Shown piece by piece: positions 3,761 through 52,984 of a DNA stretch of 64,000 nucleotides. A model generated the notes under the pieces. It was not told the origin of the DNA, did not search any database, and was given only the letters and a program-made list of their open reading frames with translations. How positions within the stretch are numbered: position 1 is the first letter of the stretch; every line of letters begins with the position of its first letter. Location: assembly GCA_036397635.1 (NCBI GenBank), contig DASWIP010000080.1, forward strand, positions 37,792 through 101,791, read 5' to 3'. The translations under genes were made by a program, and so were the position numbers. Source of the stretch: Actinomycetota bacterium (GTDB lineage: Bacteria; Actinomycetota; AC-67).

Positions 3761-4138
3761 GTGATGGCAGACGACATCGTCCCCGGTCTGGCCGGCGAAG
3801 CGAGGCGCGTGGTGACCGAGGCTCAGACCGCGATCGGGCTCGGGTCCGGCGACGTGCCGGTCTTCGGGACGCCCGCGCTGCTCGCGATGATGGAGGAAGC
3901 TGCTGTGGCCGCGCTGCTCGGGGCGCTGCCCGACGGGCGGACCAGTGTCGGCGTCTCGGTCGAGCTCGAGCATCTCGCACCCTCGCGCGTTGGCGCTGAG
4001 GTGCGTGCGCTCGCGCGCATGGTGTCGGCCGAGGGCGGACGCGTGATCTTCGATTGCGAAGCTTACGACGGGGAGACGCTGATCGGGCGGGCGAGGCATG
4101 CGCGCGCGATCGTTGATCGCGTGCGCTTCGGCCGATGA
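3761..4138 (+). CDS. Hotdog-fold thioesterase (FlK/YbgC-like)
   Basis: 125 aa. Central 'TSVGVSVELEHLAPSRVGAEV' followed by a Gly-rich strand, typical of small acyl-CoA thioesterases. Stop overlaps the next start (ATGA). Confidence 0.55.
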   Translation: MMADDIVPGLAGEARRVVTEAQTAIGLGSGDVPVFGTPALLAMMEEAAVAALLGALPDGRTSVGVSVELEHLAPSRVGAEVRALARMVSAEGGRVIFDCEAYDGETLIGRARHARAIVDRVRFGR

Positions 4139-4452
4139 GCACGTACGTCGAGGCCGCGCGCTTGACGGACGTCCCGCCGGGGACCGGCCGGAACGTCGAC
4201 GTGGACGGCCGGCCTGTTGCGCTGTTCAACCTGGACGGGACGTTCTACGCCTACGAGGGAGTCTGCCTGCATCGCGGCGGCCCCGTCGGCGAGGGTGATG
4301 TCGAGGACAGCGTGGTCACGTGTCCCTGGCACGGCTGGCAGTACGAGGTCGCAACAGGCCGGCACACGCTCGATCCTACGATCGGCCTCCGCCCCTACGA
4401 CGTACGGGTCGAAGGGGACGCGGTCCTCGTGGCGATCCCCGATCAGCCCTGA
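4135..4452 (+). CDS. Rieske [2Fe-2S] domain protein (NirD / Rieske ferredoxin-like)
   Basis: Rieske ligand motifs 'CLHRGG' and 'CPWHGW' about 17 residues apart. 105 aa. Confidence 0.8.
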   Translation: MSTYVEAARLTDVPPGTGRNVDVDGRPVALFNLDGTFYAYEGVCLHRGGPVGEGDVEDSVVTCPWHGWQYEVATGRHTLDPTIGLRPYDVRVEGDAVLVAIPDQP

Positions 4453-5969
4453 GCAAGCACGTACTCGACCAAGGTGCGCACGCCCGAGCCGGTCGCCCAC
4501 TTGCTGTTCTCGAATTCGTCCCTATCCGCCTTCGCGGTCCCCGCGATGTCCAGGTGCACCCACGGGGTGTCCCCGGCGAACTGCTTCAGGAACAGAGCGG
4601 CCTGCGTCGCGCCGGCCCCGACGTCGATGCTGCGATGATTGCGCAGGTCGGCGATGTCCGACTTCATGACCGGGAGATACTCCATCTCGAGGGGAAGCTC
4701 CCACGCCTTCTCCCCCGCTCGCTCCGCCGCGTCGAGCACCTTGCGGGTTTCGCTGCGGGGCTCCCCCACAACGCCGAAGACTTTGTTCCCGAGCGCGATC
4801 ACACAAGCACCGGTCAGCGTCGCGATATCCACGATCACATCGGCGCCGCGCTCGCGCGCGTAGGCGATCGCGTCGGCCATCACCAGACGGCCCTCCGCGT
4901 CGGTGTTCCCGATCTCCACGGTCGTTCCGCCGTATTGTGTGATCACGTCGCCGGGCCGCAACGCGTTGCCGTCTGGCATGTTCTCGGCGGTTGCGATGTA
5001 GGCCCACACGTTGACCTTCGGCTTCAAGTGCGCGATCGCCTCCATGGCCCCGAGCACCGCTCCGCCGCCGCCCATATCCATCTTCATCCAGTCGATACCG
5101 CTGGTGCCCGGCTTGAGGTTCAGACCGCCGGAGTCGAACGTGATGCCTTTGCCGACGAGCGCGATCGTGCGCTTCGCGCCGGCCGGCTCGTAGCGCAGCT
5201 CGATCAAGCGCGGAGCCTTCGGGCTGCCACGGCCGACGCCGAGGATGCCGCCGAACCCTTTCGCCTCCAGCTCCTTCTCGTCGAAGACCTTGATCTTGAG
5301 CCTGGTATCCTTCGCGATCCGCCGCGCTTCCTGCGCCAGCGACTCGGGGCTCTTGTCGTTCGACGGAGTGTTGGTCAGGTCGCGCGCGAGGTTCTGGCCC
5401 CGCGCGACCACCTGGGCGCGATCGACCTCCTTGCGTAACGCGCGCGCGTTCCACTTCTTCTCGCCGAGCAGCGTCACCGTCTCGACCACGTTCGGCACGC
5501 CGTTCTGCTGGGCCTTGTACCGCTGGTAACGATAGGTAGCCAGCTCGAAGCCCTCGACGAACAGGCGAACCACCGCGTCGGTGCCACCCTTGACGGCGCG
5601 AGGGATGGTCGTCGCGACGCTGCTCGCACCTCCGCTGCGACGCGCGACCATCGCGCCTGCCTTCATCGCGACGGTGCCCTTGGCCCCGGCCCGCTCTCCC
5701 ATCCCGATCAACAAGACAGACCTCGCGGGCAAACGGCCGAGCGTTTCGAACGCGATCGCGTCGCCCAGCTCGCCGGCGAACGTCGGCCTCTTCGTCGAGA
5801 TCTCGCCCAGCTGCGGCGTCCGCGCGATCACGTCGGCCAGCGACACGTCCAGCGCTGCGAGCACCTCCTTGACACCCGGCCCGGCCTCGCCGCCCTTGAA
5901 GACCGGCAGCGCGAGGACATCGCAGGAGACATCCTGCGGTCGATCGATTGAGAGAGAGAACGTGGCCAT
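4443..5969 (-). CDS. pepA: Leucyl aminopeptidase (M17 family)
   Basis: 508 aa with the M17 signature 'NTDAEGRL', 'GKGITFDSGG' and metal ligands. Confidence 0.9.
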   Translation of the reverse strand: MATFSLSIDRPQDVSCDVLALPVFKGGEAGPGVKEVLAALDVSLADVIARTPQLGEISTKRPTFAGELGDAIAFETLGRLPARSVLLIGMGERAGAKGTVAMKAGAMVARRSGGASSVATTIPRAVKGGTDAVVRLFVEGFELATYRYQRYKAQQNGVPNVVETVTLLGEKKWNARALRKEVDRAQVVARGQNLARDLTNTPSNDKSPESLAQEARRIAKDTRLKIKVFDEKELEAKGFGGILGVGRGSPKAPRLIELRYEPAGAKRTIALVGKGITFDSGGLNLKPGTSGIDWMKMDMGGGGAVLGAMEAIAHLKPKVNVWAYIATAENMPDGNALRPGDVITQYGGTTVEIGNTDAEGRLVMADAIAYARERGADVIVDIATLTGACVIALGNKVFGVVGEPRSETRKVLDAAERAGEKAWELPLEMEYLPVMKSDIADLRNHRSIDVGAGATQAALFLKQFAGDTPWVHLDIAGTAKADRDEFENSKWATGSGVRTLVEYVLAQG

Positions 5970-44873: not shown

Positions 44874-45812
44874 TCACGGTGCGTCGTGGAGGGCCGCCCA
44901 GATCGCGGCGACTAACCTCTCCGGGCGCGCGAGGTCCCTCCAGGTGACATGGATGACCCGCCAGCCGAGCAGCGTCAGCGCGTTGCGCCGTGCCAGGTCG
45001 TGCTCCCAGGGCATGCGGCCGGAGTGCCACCGGTAGCTGTCCGCCTCGATCGCCAGCCGGGCATCGGGGAACGCGAAGTCCACCACGGCTACGGTCCGCC
45101 CACCGCTCCTGATCCGGTACTGGGGAAGCGGTTCGGGCAGACGGGCGCGCCGCAGGACCCGCAGCAGCCGCGACTCCAGGACGCTCTCCGGAGGAGGATC
45201 CGAGGGAGCGCGCGCTTCGAGCAGGGCGCGCATCACTGCGATGCCGGGCCGTCCTCGCTGGTCTCCACGGACGTGCCAGCGCATGCGCGCGATGGAGACG
45301 AGGCGGCGGCGGAGCGCGTCGTCCAGCGCCTCCTCGACCGCATCTCTCGACGCCACCGCCGCGATGTCGATCAGCGTGCGCGCCGGAACGGTCACGGGGA
45401 TCGCCTCCACGATCGTCACGTCTCCGGCCGGAAGAGCGTTCCGATGCACGATCCCGGGTGCGATGCGGTCCCGGCGCCGGGGCACCGTCAGCTCGATCGG
45501 CCCCGGCTCGAAGCCTGCGAGACGAGGCAAGGCGGCAGCCGCGCGATGCGACGCGACGGCGCCGTCACCCCACGCGAGGCAAGCCGCAAGCAGAGACTGG
45601 CGCCATGACGGCGGGACCCCGGCGAGCCGGAACACCCCGCTCGCGCATCGCTCCCACCGGCCCACCTCGAGCCGGTGGTCGATGAAGCCACGCGTAGCGC
45701 CGAGTTCCCTCAGCTGTGCCCGCGTGAAGACCCCGTGCTGGCGTTCCGCAAGGCGCGCCACGCCCGCATCCCCCCGAGCTTGTCCGAGTTCTGCAGGTTG
45801 TACTGGCACCAT
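44874..45812 (-). CDS. DUF559 / AbiEi-N-like domain protein (Vsr-fold endonuclease-like family, multi-copy in actinobacteria)
   Basis: N-terminal 'FTRAQLRELGATRGFIDHRLEVGRWERCASGVFRLAG', C-terminal DUF559-like 'VDFAFPDARLAIEADSYRWH'. Confidence 0.7.
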   Translation of the reverse strand: MVPVQPAELGQARGDAGVARLAERQHGVFTRAQLRELGATRGFIDHRLEVGRWERCASGVFRLAGVPPSWRQSLLAACLAWGDGAVASHRAAAALPRLAGFEPGPIELTVPRRRDRIAPGIVHRNALPAGDVTIVEAIPVTVPARTLIDIAAVASRDAVEEALDDALRRRLVSIARMRWHVRGDQRGRPGIAVMRALLEARAPSDPPPESVLESRLLRVLRRARLPEPLPQYRIRSGGRTVAVVDFAFPDARLAIEADSYRWHSGRMPWEHDLARRNALTLLGWRVIHVTWRDLARPERLVAAIWAALHDAP

Positions 45813-45939: not shown

Positions 45940-47136
45940 TTAGGCCGATGCGACCACGCGCGCGGGACGGAAGCGGACGGGGAGGCGGTTGGGCGAGCGG
46001 AACGCGTCCCCTTGGATGTACGTCTCGCCGCCGTCCGCGTCCAGCCGCAGGTCCTCCAGCCGATCGAGCAGCGCGTTCATCGCCGTGGTCACCTCCGCGC
46101 GCGCGAGGTGCTCGCCCAGGCAGCGATGCGGCCCTTCGGCGAACGCGAGGTGCGGCGCGCGCACCGCGAACAGGTCGTAGCGGTCCGGATCCTCGAACAC
46201 CGCCTCATCCCTGTTGGCCGAGCCGAGCACCAATCCGATGTGCGCGCCGGCGGGGATCACGGCCGCACCCACCTCGACGTCGCGGGTCGTCATCCGCTCG
46301 ATGAACTGCACCGGGGTCTCCCAGCGCAGCGCCTCCTCGATCGCGGCGGGTAGAAGGTCACGCTGATCCCGTACGGCGTCGAGCTGCCGCGGGTCGTGCA
46401 GCAGCGCGAACAGCAGGGAGCCGAGCAACCGGTAGGTGGTCTCGGCGCCGGCCGGCAGCAGCAGCCGCAGGAACCCAAAGATCTCCTCGTCGGGCAAGGG
46501 CCGCCCGTCGATCTCGGCCCCGGCAAGCTCGCCGATGAGATCCTCGCGTGGGTCGCGACGACGCTGCTCGACGATCGGCGCGAGGTAGGAGCGCATCTCC
46601 TCGGCGGCCTGCAATCCGATCGAGGTCTCCGAGAGCCCGAGCATCGCGATCGACAGCCGAACGAACCGTGGATACTCCTCTCGCGGGATCCCGAGCAACT
46701 CGGCGATGATCTGGATGGGATAGCGGATCGTCACCTCCGAGACCAGCTCGGCGCGCCCGTGTCCGGCGATGCGGTCGATCAGGTCGTGGATCGTCGGCTC
46801 GATCAGGGTGGGCAGCACCCGCTCGATCGCGCGCCGGCGGAAGGTGCCGCCGATCAGCGCGCGATGCTGCTGATGCTCGGCGCCGTCCATCTGCAGGATC
46901 GACGGGCCGAACGCCAGACCGACCGAGTCCTCGTAGCCGCGCGACGAGAATGTCTGCGGGTCACGCAGCATCCGCTCCACGTCGGCGTAGCGGAAGATGG
47001 TGAACCACGCTCCCGCCGGATCCTGCTGCATCACCGGATCCTCCCGGCGCGCCCAGGCGTAATCCGGGTAGGGATCGCGCGCGTCGCCGACCGCGAGCTT
47101 GATCAGCGCGTCGAGGTCGTCGGGCCAGTCGCTCAC
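45940..47136 (-). CDS. Cytochrome P450
   Basis: Heme-ligand loop 'FAEGPHRCLGEHLA' and 'ETLR'-equivalent 'EEALRWETP'. Confidence 0.85.
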   Translation of the reverse strand: MSDWPDDLDALIKLAVGDARDPYPDYAWARREDPVMQQDPAGAWFTIFRYADVERMLRDPQTFSSRGYEDSVGLAFGPSILQMDGAEHQQHRALIGGTFRRRAIERVLPTLIEPTIHDLIDRIAGHGRAELVSEVTIRYPIQIIAELLGIPREEYPRFVRLSIAMLGLSETSIGLQAAEEMRSYLAPIVEQRRRDPREDLIGELAGAEIDGRPLPDEEIFGFLRLLLPAGAETTYRLLGSLLFALLHDPRQLDAVRDQRDLLPAAIEEALRWETPVQFIERMTTRDVEVGAAVIPAGAHIGLVLGSANRDEAVFEDPDRYDLFAVRAPHLAFAEGPHRCLGEHLARAEVTTAMNALLDRLEDLRLDADGGETYIQGDAFRSPNRLPVRFRPARVVASA

Positions 47137-48359
47137 GACGGCGAGAACCTGATCGGGACGCAGTTGGGCGAACGGAACGCGTAGCCGAGCACATGAGGGT
47201 CGCGTCCATCAGCGTCCAGCCGCAGATCCGGCAGCCGGTCGAGCAGCACGTCCAGCGAAACCGCCGCTTCGAGCCTGGCCAGATGCTCACCCAGGCAGCG
47301 GTGCACCCCGTCGCCGAACGCGACGTGGGGCGGCGGACCAGTCCGAGACAGATCGTAGGCGTCGGGGGCGTCGTAGCGAGCCTCGTCCCGGTTCGAGGCG
47401 CCCAGGTTCACGAACACCGGGGTTCCCTCCGCGATCGCGACCCCGGCCAGTTCGGTGTCCCGAGTCGCCTCGCGCATCGCGAACTGCACCGGCGCCTCCC
47501 AACGCAGCGACTCCTCGACCGCTTTCGCGATCAGGCTCCGGTCGGCGCGCACGGCCTCCAGCCGCGACGGCTGCTCGAGCAGCGCGAGCGTCATCGAGCC
47601 GAGCAGCCGATACGTGGTCGCCGCGCCCGCCGGGATCAGCAGTCGCAGGAACCCGTGGATCAGATCCTCGGGAAGCTTCTGCCCGTCGAGCTCAGCGGTG
47701 ACCAGATCGCTGATCACGTCATCGCCGGGCGCGGCGCGGCGCTGCTCGATCACGGTCGCGAAGTAGGCTTCGGCTTCCTTGGCGGCCGCGACGGCGCGAT
47801 CCCAGTCCACCGCGGCGCTCTCGAGCGATACCGCCCAGCGCTGCCAGCGCTCGAGATCGATCGCCGGCACGCCCAGGATCTGCGCGAAGACGCGCACCGG
47901 CACCTGCCAGGTGAACTCGCGCACCAGCTCGGCGTCGCCGCGCGCGGCGAACCGGTCGATGGCCTCGTGGGCGACCGGACGGATCAGGGTCTCCTCCCAC
48001 TGCTTGACCACGGTCGGCCGGAAGGCGTGCCCGATCAGCTTGCGGTGCACGAAATGCTCGCGGCCGTCCATCTCCAGGATCGTTCGCCCGAGCAGCGGTC
48101 GCATCCACGCGCCGTTGATCCGCGCCGAGAAGGTCTCCTCGTCGCGCAGGACGATCGATGCGACGTCGTAGGAGAAGACCATCGTGACCGGCACGCCCAG
48201 ATGCTTCGCCGGCGCGACCGGGGACGCGCGCCGAGCCTCGTGGTAGCGCGGGTACGGGTCGCGATCGTCGCCGATGTTGGCGGCGAGCAGATCGACCTCG
48301 CCGGTCGCCGACGCCCCCGGCTGGTCGGTCGCCCCGGGCACTGGCTGGTCGGTCGCCAC
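47133..48359 (-). CDS. Cytochrome P450 (tandem paralog)
   Basis: 'FGDGVHRCLGEHLA', 'EESLRWEAP'. ATGA overlap with the downstream P450. Confidence 0.85.
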   Translation of the reverse strand: MATDQPVPGATDQPGASATGEVDLLAANIGDDRDPYPRYHEARRASPVAPAKHLGVPVTMVFSYDVASIVLRDEETFSARINGAWMRPLLGRTILEMDGREHFVHRKLIGHAFRPTVVKQWEETLIRPVAHEAIDRFAARGDAELVREFTWQVPVRVFAQILGVPAIDLERWQRWAVSLESAAVDWDRAVAAAKEAEAYFATVIEQRRAAPGDDVISDLVTAELDGQKLPEDLIHGFLRLLIPAGAATTYRLLGSMTLALLEQPSRLEAVRADRSLIAKAVEESLRWEAPVQFAMREATRDTELAGVAIAEGTPVFVNLGASNRDEARYDAPDAYDLSRTGPPPHVAFGDGVHRCLGEHLARLEAAVSLDVLLDRLPDLRLDADGRDPHVLGYAFRSPNCVPIRFSPS

Positions 48360-48427: not shown

Positions 48428-49510
48428 GTGACCGAGCCCCTCACCCCGATCTACGACGAGCCCGTCCGCGGCACCTACCCCTCACTGGCGTGGCTCGGGC
48501 TGCACGGTCGGGACCGGATGAGCACTGGCCGCGCGCTGAAGATCCCCCGTCCCCCCATGCATCACCTCACCGGTCTGCGTCCGGTCGCGATCGAGCAGGA
48601 CGAGGTCGCCTGGGAACTGCCGGCGAGCCCCTGGTTCCAGACCGCGGCCGGCCCGTTCCTCGGCGGAATCTCGGCGCTCGCGGCCGACGCACCCCTGGGC
48701 GGAGTCCTGTTCCCGCACCTCGAGCCCGGCGCCTACCCCACCTCCTCGGAGCTGTCGATGAGCTTCCTGCGCCCCGCCGGGGTCGCCAGCGAGAAGCTGG
48801 TGGCGCGCGCGCGCCTGATCGATGTCGGCCGCACCCAGGGGCTGTCGGAGGCGACCGTGGCGGACGCGCGCGGCCGTGTCGTCGCGCACATGACCTCCCG
48901 GTTGTTCATCAAGACCATCACCCCGGTGCCCGGCCCACCGGACGAACTCACGCTGCCCGAGCAACCCGTCTACGACACGCCCGATCCGTGGGAGCGCCCG
49001 CTTCCGGCGGCGCTCGGGCCCCTGCGCGCCGGGGAAACCTCGGGCATCGACGCGCTCCGCAGGATCGCCTCGGGCGAGTCGCCCGGCGGCCCGTTCATGC
49101 ATCTGTTCGGGATGCGTCTAACGGAAGCGGAGGAAGGCTCGGTGCGGCTGGTGATCCACGCGAGCGAATGGCTCAACAGCGCGGCGCGCGCCATCTACGG
49201 TGGCTTCCTCGCCCTGTTCGTCGACGCGGCGATGACCTTCGCGGTCACCTCGACCATCCCCGCCGGCGGCTCGTGCGCCGCGCTCGACGTCAAGGTGCAT
49301 TTCCTCCGGCCGGGGATCGCCGACGGGCGCGAGCTGGAATGCCGCGCGTTCGTGGTGCATCGGGGGCGCCGGTTCGCGGTGACGCAGGCCGAGCTGCTCA
49401 ACCCTGATGGCAAGCCGGTCGTGATCGCGAGCGGCTCGTCGATGGTCCTCGCCGATCGGCCCTGGGGCTCGATCGTGATCGCCGACGAGGACTCGCCGGG
49501 CGACGACTAG
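48428..49510 (+). CDS. Tandem hotdog-fold (PaaI-type) thioesterase
   Basis: Two PaaI-like halves ('...HLTGLRPVAIEQDEVAWELPA...' and '...HLFGMRLTEAEEGSVRLVIHASEW...'). GTG start. Confidence 0.65.
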   Translation: MTEPLTPIYDEPVRGTYPSLAWLGLHGRDRMSTGRALKIPRPPMHHLTGLRPVAIEQDEVAWELPASPWFQTAAGPFLGGISALAADAPLGGVLFPHLEPGAYPTSSELSMSFLRPAGVASEKLVARARLIDVGRTQGLSEATVADARGRVVAHMTSRLFIKTITPVPGPPDELTLPEQPVYDTPDPWERPLPAALGPLRAGETSGIDALRRIASGESPGGPFMHLFGMRLTEAEEGSVRLVIHASEWLNSAARAIYGGFLALFVDAAMTFAVTSTIPAGGSCAALDVKVHFLRPGIADGRELECRAFVVHRGRRFAVTQAELLNPDGKPVVIASGSSMVLADRPWGSIVIADEDSPGDD

Positions 49511-50340
49511 CTCTCGTAGCCTGCGTCGCGATCGCGGAAGACGTCCTTCATCGAACCTTTCTGCTGGCGAGCAGCGAGCGCGTCCAGCGACGTCTTGGTG
49601 TTGTGCTGGAACTGGTGGACCATGAAGTGGTACTCGAGCGCCGCGCGGTACCCACCGAGGTCCATCGCGTGATTGACCGAGCGCTTGATGTTCTGCGCGG
49701 TGATCGCCGGCAGCCGCGCCACCTTCTCGGCCAGCTCGAACGTCGCCTCCTCCAGCAGCGCGCGCGGCACCACCCGGTTCACGAACCCGAGCCGGTGTGC
49801 CTCGGGAGCCTCCAACGCGTCGCCGGTGAACAGCAACTCCTTCGCCTTCCGCGGTCCCAACTCGATCTCCGCGAGCAGCTCCACCCCCGCCGCCGTCATG
49901 CGCGCGACCGGGTTCTGGAACACCGCGTCGTCGGCGCACACGATCAGGTCGCACATCGCCGCGAGCATCCATCCGGCAGCGACCACGTGGCCCTGCACCA
50001 TCGCGATCGTCGGCGTGCGCAGGTCGCGGATCGCTAGGCATTTGTCGAAGTACTGGGTGCGTTCGTGGTCGAACTTGCCCTCGGGCGTCAGTCGCTTCTC
50101 GTGCCACTCGTCGGCGGGCGCTTCGCCGACGTAGGCCTTCAAGTCGTGCCCAGAGGACCAGTGGTCGCCGGCACCGGCCAGCACGATCACTCGAACGTCC
50201 GGGTCACGGTCGGCGACGCGCATCGCGTCGTCCAGCTCGTCGATCAGCGCGGTGTTCTGCGCGTTGCGCACCTCGGGCCTGTTCATGGTCACCAGCTCGA
50301 TGGCGCCGCGCCGCTCGACCAATAACGTCTGGTAGCCCAT
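49507..50340 (-). CDS. Enoyl-CoA hydratase/isomerase-family protein
   Basis: 'VTMNRPEVRNAQN', 'GAGDHWSSGHDL'. ATG at 50340 with SD 'GGGGAGGA'. The longer ORF extension is low-complexity. Confidence 0.75.
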   Translation of the reverse strand: MGYQTLLVERRGAIELVTMNRPEVRNAQNTALIDELDDAMRVADRDPDVRVIVLAGAGDHWSSGHDLKAYVGEAPADEWHEKRLTPEGKFDHERTQYFDKCLAIRDLRTPTIAMVQGHVVAAGWMLAAMCDLIVCADDAVFQNPVARMTAAGVELLAEIELGPRKAKELLFTGDALEAPEAHRLGFVNRVVPRALLEEATFELAEKVARLPAITAQNIKRSVNHAMDLGGYRAALEYHFMVHQFQHNTKTSLDALAARQQKGSMKDVFRDRDAGYES

Positions 50341-50531
50341 CAATCCTCCCCGGCCCAACGGCGCTGGATCTGCTGCTCGCGCACGCGGCAGGACCTCTCG
50401 AGCGCCCCCGACGCTCGCGCCAGCTCGCGTGCCTCCTCGAACCAGCGCACGCGCTCCTGAACCGGAAGACGCGCGATCTCGCGCAGTTGCGCGCGTCGGT
50501 GCTCGTCCCACGACACCGGCCAGTCACTCAC
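50340..50531 (-). CDS. Small Arg/Glu-rich hypothetical protein (63 aa)
   Basis: GC3-rich codons. GTG start overlaps the NTase stop. Its stop overlaps the hydratase ATG, and its 3' end encodes the hydratase SD. Confidence 0.4.
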   Translation of the reverse strand: MSDWPVSWDEHRRAQLREIARLPVQERVRWFEEARELARASGALERSCRVREQQIQRRWAGED

Positions 50532-51015
50532 GTTGATGTATCGCCTCCAGCGCTTCGATATCGGCCAGGTCTTGGTGCCGTCCGGCCGCGCGTTTCATCG
50601 CGAGCAAGTGCTCGAGTGACACGATACGCGTTTCCGTGACTCCGTAGGGAACAACGATCGACGACGCCCACATCTCCTGGAACGGGAACGGCTCCTCGAC
50701 GAACACGTCCACCCTGCGGGTGAGGTCGTGAACGTCTCTCATGGGGAAGGCCTGCATGTTCCGCTCATCGATCCAGCGTCGTCGCGTCTCAGGATCTGCG
50801 AACGATGCGGCGTCGACAGGTACCGAGGGCGTGAGCCCCAGCCCACTGAGAGCATCCATCGTCCGCCGGGCGTTATCGGGCTCCAGGTCGACGATGAGAT
50901 CAACGTCAAGCGTCAGGCGAGCGTGCCCATGCAGGACCACGGCCAGGCCGCCGACGACCAGGTAGCGCACCCGGGCCTCGTTCAGCGATCGGAGCAGCTC
51001 CTCGACGAAGGTCAC
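50524..51015 (-). CDS. Minimal nucleotidyltransferase-fold protein
   Basis: 'VVGGLAVVLHGHARLTLDVDLIV' (GG...hG..R.T.DxD NTase motif). C-terminal 'HLLAMKRAAGRHQDLADIEALE'. Confidence 0.6.
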   Translation of the reverse strand: MTFVEELLRSLNEARVRYLVVGGLAVVLHGHARLTLDVDLIVDLEPDNARRTMDALSGLGLTPSVPVDAASFADPETRRRWIDERNMQAFPMRDVHDLTRRVDVFVEEPFPFQEMWASSIVVPYGVTETRIVSLEHLLAMKRAAGRHQDLADIEALEAIHQRE

Positions 51016-51059
51016 GCCCCATTATCCGCGCCGCACGGCCGCAAACGCCGAAGAGGGGG

Positions 51060-52232
51060 CTAGGCCTTCGGCTCGCGGGGCAGGCCCAAGATGCGCTCGG
51101 CGATGATGTTGCGCTGGATCTCGCTGGTGCCGCCTGCGATCGACGCCGCGCGCGACCACAACATCGCGCGCGCCCAGCGTCCGCCGTCCACGGCGAGGGG
51201 ATCCTCGGCGAGGCGCAGCGCGTCCGATCCGATGATCGCGCCCGCGTGCTCGGCCATCCGCTGCGTCGTCTCGGTCCAGAACAGCTTCACCATCGACGAC
51301 TCCGGCCCGACCTGCTCGCCCTTCTCGAGCCTCGTCAGCGTGCGCGCATTGTGAAGCCGGAACAGTTCGACATCCATCCACGACTGCGCCACCTTCTGCC
51401 GTACCAGCGGATCGTCGTACAGGCCGCGCGCGACGGCGGTCCGTAGCAGGAGGTCGCGGGCAACCTCCTGTAGCACTTGCTCCTTCCACACGAAGCTGGT
51501 CCCGCGCTCGTTCGCCAGCGTCGTTCCGGCGACGCGCCAGCCCTCGTTCTCGTTGCCGATCAGATTCTCGGCCGGGACCGGTACCTCGTCGAAGAACACC
51601 TCGTTGAACTCGGACTCGCCGGTGATCTGACGGAGCGGTCGCACGTCGATGCCGGATGCGTCCAGCGGGACGGCGACCATCGAGATCCCCCGGTGCTTCG
51701 GCGCCTCTGCGTCGGTGCGCACGAGCGCGATCCCGAAGTCGGCGACCTTTGCGTAGGACGACCATACCTTCTGACCGGTCACGTAGAACGTGTCGCCGCG
51801 ACGCTCCGCGCGCGTGGACAGCCCGGCGAGGTCGCTGCCGGCCCCGGGCTCGGAGAAGAACTGGCACCAGATCTCGCTCGCATCCAGGATCTTCGGCAGC
51901 CATCGCTCCTTCTGCTGCTCGGTCCCGTGGGCCATCAGCGTGGGACCGACCAGGTTCACGCCGGCGCGTCCGAGGATCTGCGGGGCGCGCGCGCGCGCGA
52001 GTTCCTCGTTGTAGATCGCGACCTGGACCAGCGATGCGCCACGGCCTCCGTACTCGGAGGGCCAGTGGATGCCGACCCAGCGGCCGGCGGCGAGCGTCCG
52101 CTGCCACTCGCGCAGCGTTTCCACCTCGCGGAAGTCCGAGGCGACATCGATGTCCGGCGGCGGATGCTCGGCCAGCCACCCACGAAGCTCGTCCCGGAAG
52201 GAGAGATCGTCGGCGGAGAGGTCGAAGTCCAT
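51060..52232 (-). CDS. Acyl-CoA dehydrogenase (paralog of 43495..44655)
   Basis: Same architecture, C-terminal 'GGTSEIQRNIIAER'. Confidence 0.8.
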   Translation of the reverse strand: MDFDLSADDLSFRDELRGWLAEHPPPDIDVASDFREVETLREWQRTLAAGRWVGIHWPSEYGGRGASLVQVAIYNEELARARAPQILGRAGVNLVGPTLMAHGTEQQKERWLPKILDASEIWCQFFSEPGAGSDLAGLSTRAERRGDTFYVTGQKVWSSYAKVADFGIALVRTDAEAPKHRGISMVAVPLDASGIDVRPLRQITGESEFNEVFFDEVPVPAENLIGNENEGWRVAGTTLANERGTSFVWKEQVLQEVARDLLLRTAVARGLYDDPLVRQKVAQSWMDVELFRLHNARTLTRLEKGEQVGPESSMVKLFWTETTQRMAEHAGAIIGSDALRLAEDPLAVDGGRWARAMLWSRAASIAGGTSEIQRNIIAERILGLPREPKA

Positions 52233-52279
52233 CTCGCAAGGATGACAGAGCGCTGCCGGCTGGGGCGAACCCGGGACGA

Positions 52280-52308
52280 CGACGGCGGGGGCACAGCCCC
52301 CGCCGTCG
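52280..52308. terminator. GC-rich hairpin (13-bp stem) downstream of the secreted-protein gene
   Basis: 'cgacggcgggggc aca gcccccgccgtcg'. Confidence 0.4.
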
Positions 52309-52321
52309 GTTTCAGCGGCGT

Positions 52322-52984
52322 CTAGATTGTTGCGTCGTTCGCCATCATGTCGGCGTCTACCACCATGGTTCGCTTGCCGACGATGGCCTTCGCGTTGCCA
52401 GTCCCGGTCACGTTGGCGGTCAGAGAACTCTTGACCACGATCTCGTGGATCCCTGATCCGACGTTGAGCCAGATCCAGCTGAAGCTGTTGGCTGCGCGCG
52501 TGTCCAGGTACTGTCGGAACTCGTGATCGTCTTCGTCGTCGTCGTCGGGGCCGATCGTGACCTGGTTGAACTGCGCGCGGTTGCAGAACACGACGCGCCC
52601 GTTATCCCCTTCGGTCACCGGCACCGGCGTCCCATCGATCTCGACCCACACCTCGATCTTGGCGATCGCCTCCGAGGAATCCGACTCGCCGGCGCCCGCC
52701 GGGGTGCGGATGATGGTGTCGGTGAACAGTGCGCACTCGGCGTTGACCTCGATCAGGAGATCCGTCGGAGACGAGGTGCGCATCGTCCCGCTGAGCAGGA
52801 CGGCTTCCTCCGACGCGGCACCGTCGACCAGCGGGGCGGTCATGACCTCCATCGTGGAGCCGGCAGCGACCACCTTGTTGGCAGGCTGATGGGTGGCGCC
52901 GGCGGGCGCGATGAGGCTGGCGGTCAGCGCACCGATAACTGCGGCGGCCAGAACCATGGACCATCTGACGGCGGGTTTCCTCAC
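52322..52984 (-). CDS. Secreted hypothetical protein
   Basis: Signal peptide 'MRKPAVRWSMVLAAAVIGALTASLIAPAGA'. Acidic 'DDDDEDDHE' stretch. Confidence 0.5.
   Translation of the reverse strand: MRKPAVRWSMVLAAAVIGALTASLIAPAGATHQPANKVVAAGSTMEVMTAPLVDGAASEEAVLLSGTMRTSSPTDLLIEVNAECALFTDTIIRTPAGAGESDSSEAIAKIEVWVEIDGTPVPVTEGDNGRVVFCNRAQFNQVTIGPDDDDEDDHEFRQYLDTRAANSFSWIWLNVGSGIHEIVVKSSLTANVTGTGNAKAIVGKRTMVVDADMMANDATI

Follow-up and report, generated by a model that had tools for sequence, protein, structure and literature searches.

Organization of the locus

The window is a stretch of 64,000 nt from contig DASWIP010000080.1 of an Actinomycetota bacterium. This study concerns a pair of small genes within it, a candidate toxin-antitoxin (TA) module, which lies between genes for an acyl-CoA dehydrogenase (ACAD) and an enoyl-CoA hydratase. 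All coordinates are positions in the window, and all the genes of the module region are on the minus strand. Read in that direction, the order is ACAD, a 44-nt spacer, a minimal nucleotidyltransferase (NTase), a 63-aa open reading frame (ORF), and the hydratase (Table 1). The NTase carries the motif GGLAVVLHGHARLTLDVDL. The small ORF contains 13 Lys and Arg and 12 Asp and Glu residues, and its TGA (50342-50340) and the hydratase ATG (50340-50338) have one A in common. The original prediction for this region was made from the sequence alone. It described an NTase, an overlapping 63-aa ORF, an overlap between the stop of that ORF and the hydratase ATG, and a Shine-Dalgarno (SD) sequence for the hydratase within the ORF, and all of these were found, on the minus strand.

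Table 1. Features of the module and its flanking genes (positions in the window).
Feature	Position	Strand	Matches or basis
ACAD, flanking host gene	51060-52232	-	Pfam Acyl-CoA_dh_N, _M, _1
Inserted segment, ~719 nt (spacer, promoter, NTase, small ORF), from ACAD stop to hydratase start	50341-51059	-	empty orthologous junctions
-10-like hexamer GATAAT, 5 nt 5' of the NTase GTG; putative leaderless-mRNA promoter	51021-51026	-	
Minimal NTase, 163 aa, GTG start; MenT1-like, putative toxin	50524-51015	-	Pfam DUF6036
GGAGG, SD of the small ORF, within the 3' end of the NTase gene, 12 nt before the small-ORF start	50544-50548	-	
8-nt overlap GTGAGTGA, small-ORF start and NTase stop; predicted translational coupling	50524-50531	-	
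Small partner, 63 aa, GTG start, two predicted helices; putative antitoxin	50340-50531	-	
GGGGAGGA, SD of the hydratase, in the last codons of the small ORF (GGG GAG GAT), 3-4 nt before the ATG	50344-50351	-	
Enoyl-CoA hydratase, 277 aa, flanking host gene	49507-50340	-	Pfam ECH_1, E 2.8e-43; NCBIfam PRK08290

Conservation of the gene pair

A single-sequence search with the 63-aa ORF gave one match, a 98% identical copy, and the ORF has no match in Pfam, NCBIfam or PADLOC. NTase homologues that are 55-58% identical to that of the window have a neighbouring, overlapping ORF of 65 or 77 aa that is clearly similar to it. The small-protein family was recovered by reading the neighbours of NTase homologues in this way, and then building a profile. 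A scan with the NTase alignment, using one genome per GTDB species, gave 80 loci, from which hidden Markov models (HMMs) were made for both proteins. When an intact NTase of the subfamily is taken as one with a score of 157 bits or more on the family profile, the small domain is found directly downstream on the same strand in 37/37 loci. These span Actinomycetota, Myxococcota, Acidobacteriota, Nitrospirota, Binatia, Gemmatimonadota, Verrucomicrobiota, Bdellovibrionota and Gammaproteobacteria, and the small-ORF family includes low-GC members from Thermodesulfovibrionales (L034) and Bdellovibrionales (L039). The small-ORF start overlaps the NTase stop in 40 of 44 cases, by 4 nt (19 loci), 8 nt (13), 11 nt (4) or 14 nt (4), and an SD-core 4-mer is present at -18 to -4 of the small-ORF start in 27/38.

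The consensus of the small protein is W..hRR.QL....(T/S)PxERLxWLEE...A..GAL, with an invariant W30 and almost no variation at E26, L28, L31 and E32. The profile search found 968 clusters at 90% identity and 1841 representatives at 50% identity, all of them unnamed. Nearly all are stand-alone proteins of 53-100 aa, and no Pfam domain is present in the family members. The ratio of nonsynonymous to synonymous differences (pN/pS), calculated over the non-overlapping core of the gene for four close relatives, is 0.09-0.20, with most differences at third codon positions. The divergences of NTase and partner are correlated (Mantel r 0.61, with 0/2000 permutations as high), and gene callers annotate the small ORF in independent assemblies. 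Because of the co-occurrence, the conservation, the pN/pS values and the correlated divergence, the small ORF is judged to be a genuine, selected gene, and the pair to be inherited as a unit.

These results agree with the original prediction that the small ORF would be a conserved neighbour of NTase homologues, with coding conservation visible in the pattern of synonymous substitution. They also agree with its suggestion of an uncharacterised two-gene module, in that the pair is conserved and the small-protein family is entirely unnamed. The partner had been described as not being a HEPN protein, which is also what we find: besides having no database match, it contains no HEPN domain and no Rx4-6H motif, and no Arg is found 5-7 residues before its single His (H11).

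The nucleotidyltransferase

The NTase matches Pfam DUF6036 (PF19502) with 31.0 bits, against a cut-off of 23.6 (E 2.7e-7), and most of its homologues carry a precomputed PF19502 assignment. A DUF2204-like Pfam model gives a sub-threshold match, some family members carry precomputed matches to AbiEii (PF08843), and there is no NTP_transf_2/MNT match in Pfam. DUF6036, DUF2204 and the structural-genomics protein TM1012 (2EWR) are uncharacterised, with no function or partner described, and our search of the literature library found no paper connecting DUF6036, PF19502 or DUF2204 with toxin-antitoxin systems, and none that mentions DUF6036 or PF19502 at all.

A profile of 113 NTase homologues was compared with solved structures. 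The one convincing match is MenT1 (8AN4, 8AN5, 8RR5), with E 2.3e-8 over residues 4-158, followed by TM1012, ANT(2'')-Ia and LnuA, and then by MenT3 and MenT4. Mutagenesis has identified T39, D41, K137 and D152 of MenT1 as conserved MenT catalytic residues, with D43 aiding metal binding (Xu et al. 2023, PMC10435456). The HMM alignment places these residues (T39, D41, D43, K137 and D152) opposite T35, D37, D39, K141 and D152 of the window NTase, which are invariant or at least 90% conserved in the 113 homologues. T39 is not needed for the toxicity of MenT1, yet it is the phospho-acceptor (PMC11375011), and because of this the conservation of T35 would fit a regulatory role. The alignments indicate that the relation between the NTase and MenT1 is at the superfamily level: the same clan, the same motifs and the closest solved fold.

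The small partner and its relatives

In-frame fusions of NTase and partner occur naturally in three independent cases (P0104, P0077 and L020, at 3947-4714), although some of these may be assembly frameshifts in the overlap region. In a structural model of the P0104 fusion, the partner forms two helices with the TP of the motif at the turn, with a predicted local distance difference test score (pLDDT) of 82-88. The P0077 and L020 fusions have D152 of the NTase replaced by Glu at the junction. Some partners have extra long C-terminal domains (L064 at 4486-4992, L052 and P0293). The L064 partner is 168 aa long, with a tail that is NTF2/SnoaL-like by eye, and P0293 is 245 aa long, with a 190-aa extension. 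The search of the PDB with the partner profile gave a helical match to uL29, which was rejected as chance.

More distant relatives of the NTase have their partner elsewhere. Subfamily 2 NTases, which are 27-38% identical and are found within L045-L088, have no downstream ORF; a small upstream ORF overlaps the NTase start. The upstream protein has an FW..(S/T)PxER motif and a C-terminal RLQRV.RV element. An HMM of these upstream proteins finds the downstream partners of subfamily 1 with E-values of 3e-9 to 8e-4, and hhalign relates the two partner families with 63% probability (E 7e-5). At other distant DUF6036 loci the (S/T)PxER motif is fused to a DNA-binding domain, either an XRE-type helix-turn-helix (HTH; HTH_3, E 1e-12) or a CopG ribbon-helix-helix (RHH; RHH_1, E 2.7e-6), and at still others the neighbour resembles CopG_antitoxin or UPF0175. 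Example loci for this set of arrangements, from the upstream ORF onward, are L050, L055, L057, L058, L061, L066, L079; L071, L081, L084; L087; L049, L086. Type II antitoxins are typically built of a DNA-binding domain and a toxin-binding tail. Because the motif is joined to HTH and RHH domains in this same layout, the comparison points to the (S/T)PxER motif as a likely NTase-binding element, and to the NTase as the probable toxin.

The insertion site

A metagenome scan with the hydratase gave orthologous ACAD-hydratase junctions in contigs of related soil metagenomes. The ACAD orthologues in L089-L116 are 78-88% identical to that of the window. Hydratase orthologues are 72-85% identical. The junction is empty in L090, L093, L094, L099, L105 and L110, where 10-14 nt separate the ACAD stop from the hydratase ATG. 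It carries the module in L089 and L115, whose NTases are 51% and 63% identical to the window's and whose flanking genes are 73-88% identical. Other cargo is present in eleven junctions (L092, L095, L097, L098, L100, L102-L104, L106, L112 and L116); in L098 this is a VapC(PIN)/RHH (VapBC) pair together with a 131-aa membrane protein, and six junction loci have an opposite-strand protein of 144-157 aa with the motif GARWRRNPDGxWMRWSYLG. Because empty, module-bearing and other-cargo orthologues are all found, the ACAD-hydratase junction is taken to be an insertion hot spot.

The small ORF and the hydratase start form an ATGA overlap in L115 and are separated by a 2-nt gap in L089, and in all three occupied junctions the partner ends overlapping, or 0-2 nt from, the hydratase ATG. 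The chaining of the pair to the hydratase that had been proposed is therefore present in the sequence, but it does not stand as a functional link: six junctions are empty, others hold unrelated cargo, and elsewhere the module has other neighbourhoods. Such 'translational chaining' is a way in which an inserted cassette keeps the downstream host gene expressed. The neighbours elsewhere include hydantoinase and thiolase genes, PLDc_2 and Schlafen-like ATPase genes, glycosyltransferases, and TA pairs of the PIN/DUF6364, PIN_3/RHH_6, ParE/Phd and HicAB types.

In L115 there is an extra gene ahead of the NTase, which encodes a cupin-like protein of 109 aa. The window contains an imperfect direct repeat of 22 nt (77% identity), with one copy in the ACAD-NTase spacer (51026-51047) and the other in codons 5-12 of the hydratase (50306-50327). 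The spacing of 720 nt is close to the length of the insertion. The repeat is probably due to chance, repeats of similar quality being frequent in this GC-rich stretch.

Expression signals

The 45 nt upstream of the NTase starts were aligned for L001-L044, L064, L089 and L115. A TANNNT hexamer starting at -14 to -11 of the NTase start is present in 27/41 distinct modules, often as TATAGT or TATACT, whereas 2000 shuffles gave 1.2 on average and never more than 6. This -10-like hexamer is located 5-8 nt before the NTase start in modules from many phyla, and an SD-core 4-mer precedes the NTase start in just 7/39. In M. tuberculosis, TANNNT is found 7-12 bp upstream of 73% of primary transcription start sites, and 32/37 TA pairs are leaderless (PMC3898074). 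The arrangement found here predicts a leaderless mRNA, in which the NTase transcript would begin on the start codon or no more than two bases away. The module thus appears to carry its own -10 element, and not simply to rely on the operon promoter. A scan for sigma-70 promoters with two hexamers found none.

Read-through from the host operon, and on into the hydratase, is also likely, because there is no gene-strand terminator-like site or Rfam element between ACAD and hydratase (the Rfam search covered 49000-52500). The scan gave a single terminator-like site, which lies within the hydratase gene but on the other strand.

Loss of the NTase

In the NTase-seeded sample there are four loci (L051, L052, L065 and L075) in which the NTase is cut off before K141 and D152, yet the partner is intact. 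An intact NTase lacking a partner was found in 0/42. A partner-seeded look-up gave an orphan partner in L135 (2501-2689), amid a ParE/Phd and HicAB islet, and another in L138 (1501-1707), which is syntenic with L132 and has cleanly lost the NTase; purifying selection persists on the L138 orphan. In P0337 and P0344, what is left of the NTase is a stub, fused to a partner domain that is intact. This asymmetry of decay is as expected if the NTase is harmful without its partner.

Comparison with known systems

The best match of the NTase in both sequence and structure is to MenAT1 of M. tuberculosis (Rv0078B-Rv0078A; PDB 8AN4, 8AN5, 8RR5). MenA1, the antitoxin of MenT1, has 68 aa and two helices, is V-shaped and lacks a DNA-binding domain; it bridges two MenT1 protomers and induces auto-phosphorylation of MenT1 at T39 (PMC10435456, PMC11375011). 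The two systems share a minimal two-lobed NTase (163 aa here, about 196 aa in MenT1) with the catalytic T, D, D, K and D residues retained, and a short two-helix partner without a DNA-binding domain, although for the partner the likeness is by prediction, and in architecture only. Both are located in horizontally acquired or variable regions. They differ in the Pfam family of the NTase, which is AbiEii for MenT1 and DUF6036 here, and in the leaderless-type promoter proposed for the present module.

The AbiE (AbiEi-AbiEii, type IV) and MenAT3/MenAT4 systems (DUF1814 NTase with COG5340 antitoxin) are less similar. Their toxins are about 290 aa long with extra C-terminal elements, and their antitoxins are winged-HTH proteins of about 200 aa encoded upstream. 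No such protein adjoins the NTase in the window, where the upstream gene is ACAD. HEPN-MNT systems (HepT-MntA, type VII) resemble the pair in having a minimal NTase within a tightly overlapping two-gene module. However, in these the NTase is the antitoxin and its partner a HEPN RNase, whereas here there is neither an MNT Pfam match nor a HEPN protein, and the data favour the NTase as toxin.

Other features of the region

The hydratase frame in Table 1 agrees with the gene call in L007, and with the ATG codons of the orthologues, which are about 10 nt past the ACAD stop. A GTG-extended hydratase ORF of 334 aa was rejected as spurious, since the orthologues begin at the ATG, and the other overlapping ORFs listed for the region were also rejected.

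A 312-aa protein is encoded at 44874-45812 on the minus strand. Its copy in L007, a contig that is 99% identical, is annotated as AbiEi_4 with MTES_1575 (a DUF559-like endonuclease domain). The gene is about 4.5 kb from the module and adjoins no NTase. Between the two are tandem P450 genes (45940-47136 and 47133-48359), a double hot-dog thioesterase gene on the plus strand (48428-49510), and the hydratase.

Discussion

We have very high confidence that the NTase and its partner form a conserved, mobile and co-functional module. They show the general features of TA systems: small, adjacent and co-oriented genes, strict co-occurrence, start-stop overlap, and a patchy, mobile distribution in variable regions. 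On the sequence evidence the pair is probably a TA module with the NTase as toxin, and its best-supported identity is a MenAT-like NTase module, comprising a toxin from the DUF6036 branch and a new family of small antitoxins, with the toxin gene first. Toxicity, the roles of toxin and antitoxin, physical binding, the substrate, phosphorylation and the start of transcription are what we infer.

The proposed mechanism is as follows. The pair would be an autonomous, horizontally mobile module of MenT/AbiEii type, inserted at the variable ACAD-hydratase hot spot. Transcription from the -10 box, placed 5-8 nt ahead of the NTase start, would yield a leaderless NTase mRNA, from which the partner would be translated by coupling, by means of the 4-14 nt overlap and the internal SD, so that the supply of partner would be tied to NTase synthesis. 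By analogy with MenT1, the NTase may add nucleotides to the 3' acceptor ends of tRNA, blocking translation. The 63-aa two-helix protein would bind directly to the NTase via the conserved E26/W30/E32 face of helix 2, and may neutralise it by occluding the active site. It might in addition induce the NTase to auto-phosphorylate at T35, in the way that MenA1 acts on T39 of MenT1. The extension of tRNA 3' ends, and neutralisation by binding and/or T35 auto-phosphorylation, are the less certain parts of this scheme.

Several observations weigh against a MenAT-like TA module. NTase and MenT1 are just 22-23% identical. The NTase scores 18.1 bits with AbiEii (PF08843), under the cut-off of 22.5, while MenT1 belongs to AbiEii (36.2 bits) and not to DUF6036. 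The next structural neighbours, TM1012, LnuA and ANT(2'')-Ia, are described as acting on small molecules. The partner has no detectable sequence similarity to MenA1, and its profile finds no MenA1 chain in the PDB even at E<=10. The gene order is also different, menA1 being upstream of menT1, whereas here the NTase comes first, with the partner overlapping it downstream. TA pairs usually combine an acidic antitoxin with a basic toxin; here the partner has a median pI of 8, which is mildly basic, and the NTase an acidic median of 5, though by our own count the MenT1 segment aligned to the NTase profile is also net acidic. The P0104 model is based on an alignment with only 10 NTase rows, and gives no docking of the small domain on the NTase. 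The asymmetry of decay in the unbiased NTase-seeded sample, at 4 to 0, is not significant given the lengths of the genes. The hexamer in the window, GATAAT, matches TATAAT at 5/6 positions but is not a strict TANNNT. A tblastn search of sequenced plasmids and phages found no homologues of the module. Finally, toxicity, tRNA modification, the heterotrimer and Thr phosphorylation have been demonstrated for MenAT1, whereas the present pair is known from its sequence alone.

One alternative is that only the NTase is real, and that the 63-aa ORF is open merely by chance in GC-rich DNA, as might be suggested by the many spurious overlapping ORFs of similar length in the window and by the one near-identical match in the single-sequence search. 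We give this practically no credence. It is refuted by the co-occurrence across genomes, the family profile, which is conserved across phyla and GC contents, and the pN/pS values, and it also runs against the conserved start-stop overlap and SD and the annotation of the ORF by gene callers in independent assemblies. An unlikely account sees the pair as a non-toxic enzyme accompanied by an accessory subunit. In this case the NTase would nucleotidylate a small molecule (an antibiotic or metabolite, cf. LnuA and ANT(2'')-Ia) or a protein, and the small protein would be a regulatory, specificity or chaperone subunit, or the substrate. Against this, K141 and D152 of the DUF1814/MenT C-terminal motif are invariant, and the operon context is not conserved, the same junction being empty or filled by other cargo in relatives. 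The partners of related NTases carry HTH or RHH domains of antitoxin type, the neighbourhoods are TA or defence islets, and orphan partners outlast the loss of the NTase, as a mere accessory subunit would hardly be expected to do.

The pair might instead be an abortive-infection or phage-defence system, in which the small protein is a sensor or latch that is released or destroyed on infection to unleash the NTase, in the manner of AbiE or of a fused TA sensor. The relation of the NTase to AbiEii is in keeping with this, as are the SLFN_AlbA_2 ATPase, PLDc_2 and SIR2 genes adjoining some loci, the existence of NTase-partner fusions, and the high divergence of alleles at one hot spot, which is typical of defence genes. 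We nevertheless regard it as improbable, given that PADLOC gives no significant match (best E 0.0026) and that no copy was found on sequenced phages or plasmids; it also overlaps largely with the TA explanation, from which it differs in biological role only. A type VII system of reversed polarity, in which the NTase is an antitoxin that nucleotidylates and neutralises a toxic small protein, follows the analogy drawn in the original prediction; in its favour, the NTase is minimal in size and comes first in the pair, as does MntA with HepT. This is very improbable. Neither the NTP_transf_2/MNT match nor the HEPN domain with its Rx4-6H motif is present, the partner is hydrophilic and helical with no obvious toxic feature, and it persists alone or next to truncated NTases, a situation that would be lethal were the partner the toxin.

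Besides the MenAT-like module that we favour, a related but doubtful possibility is that the (S/T)PxERLxWLEE protein is a portable NTase-latching module used across the DUF6036 clade, which would make it a distinct TA or defence class with an undescribed mechanism. The conserved Glu and Trp might then be inserted in the nucleotide site, or the protein might act as a sensor of infection or stress, and the target of the NTase may differ from tRNA.

If the MenAT-like assignment is correct, it would be the first functional hypothesis for DUF6036, which has more than 1,400 clusters in this subfamily alone, and for the small proteins, whose roughly 1,800 clusters at 50% identity are entirely unannotated. 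The range of MenT-type toxins that target tRNA would widen from mycobacteria to Actinomycetota, Myxococcota, Acidobacteriota, Nitrospirota and other phyla, and the partner would represent a third, sequence-unrelated antitoxin solution for one toxin fold. The family would also provide a natural test of how general antitoxin-induced auto-phosphorylation of a conserved Thr is. The -10 box abutting the start codon across phyla makes the module a clean candidate for studies of leaderless TA expression. For annotation, it implies that a gene pair in a 'catabolic operon' can be a selfish insertion that keeps downstream translation.

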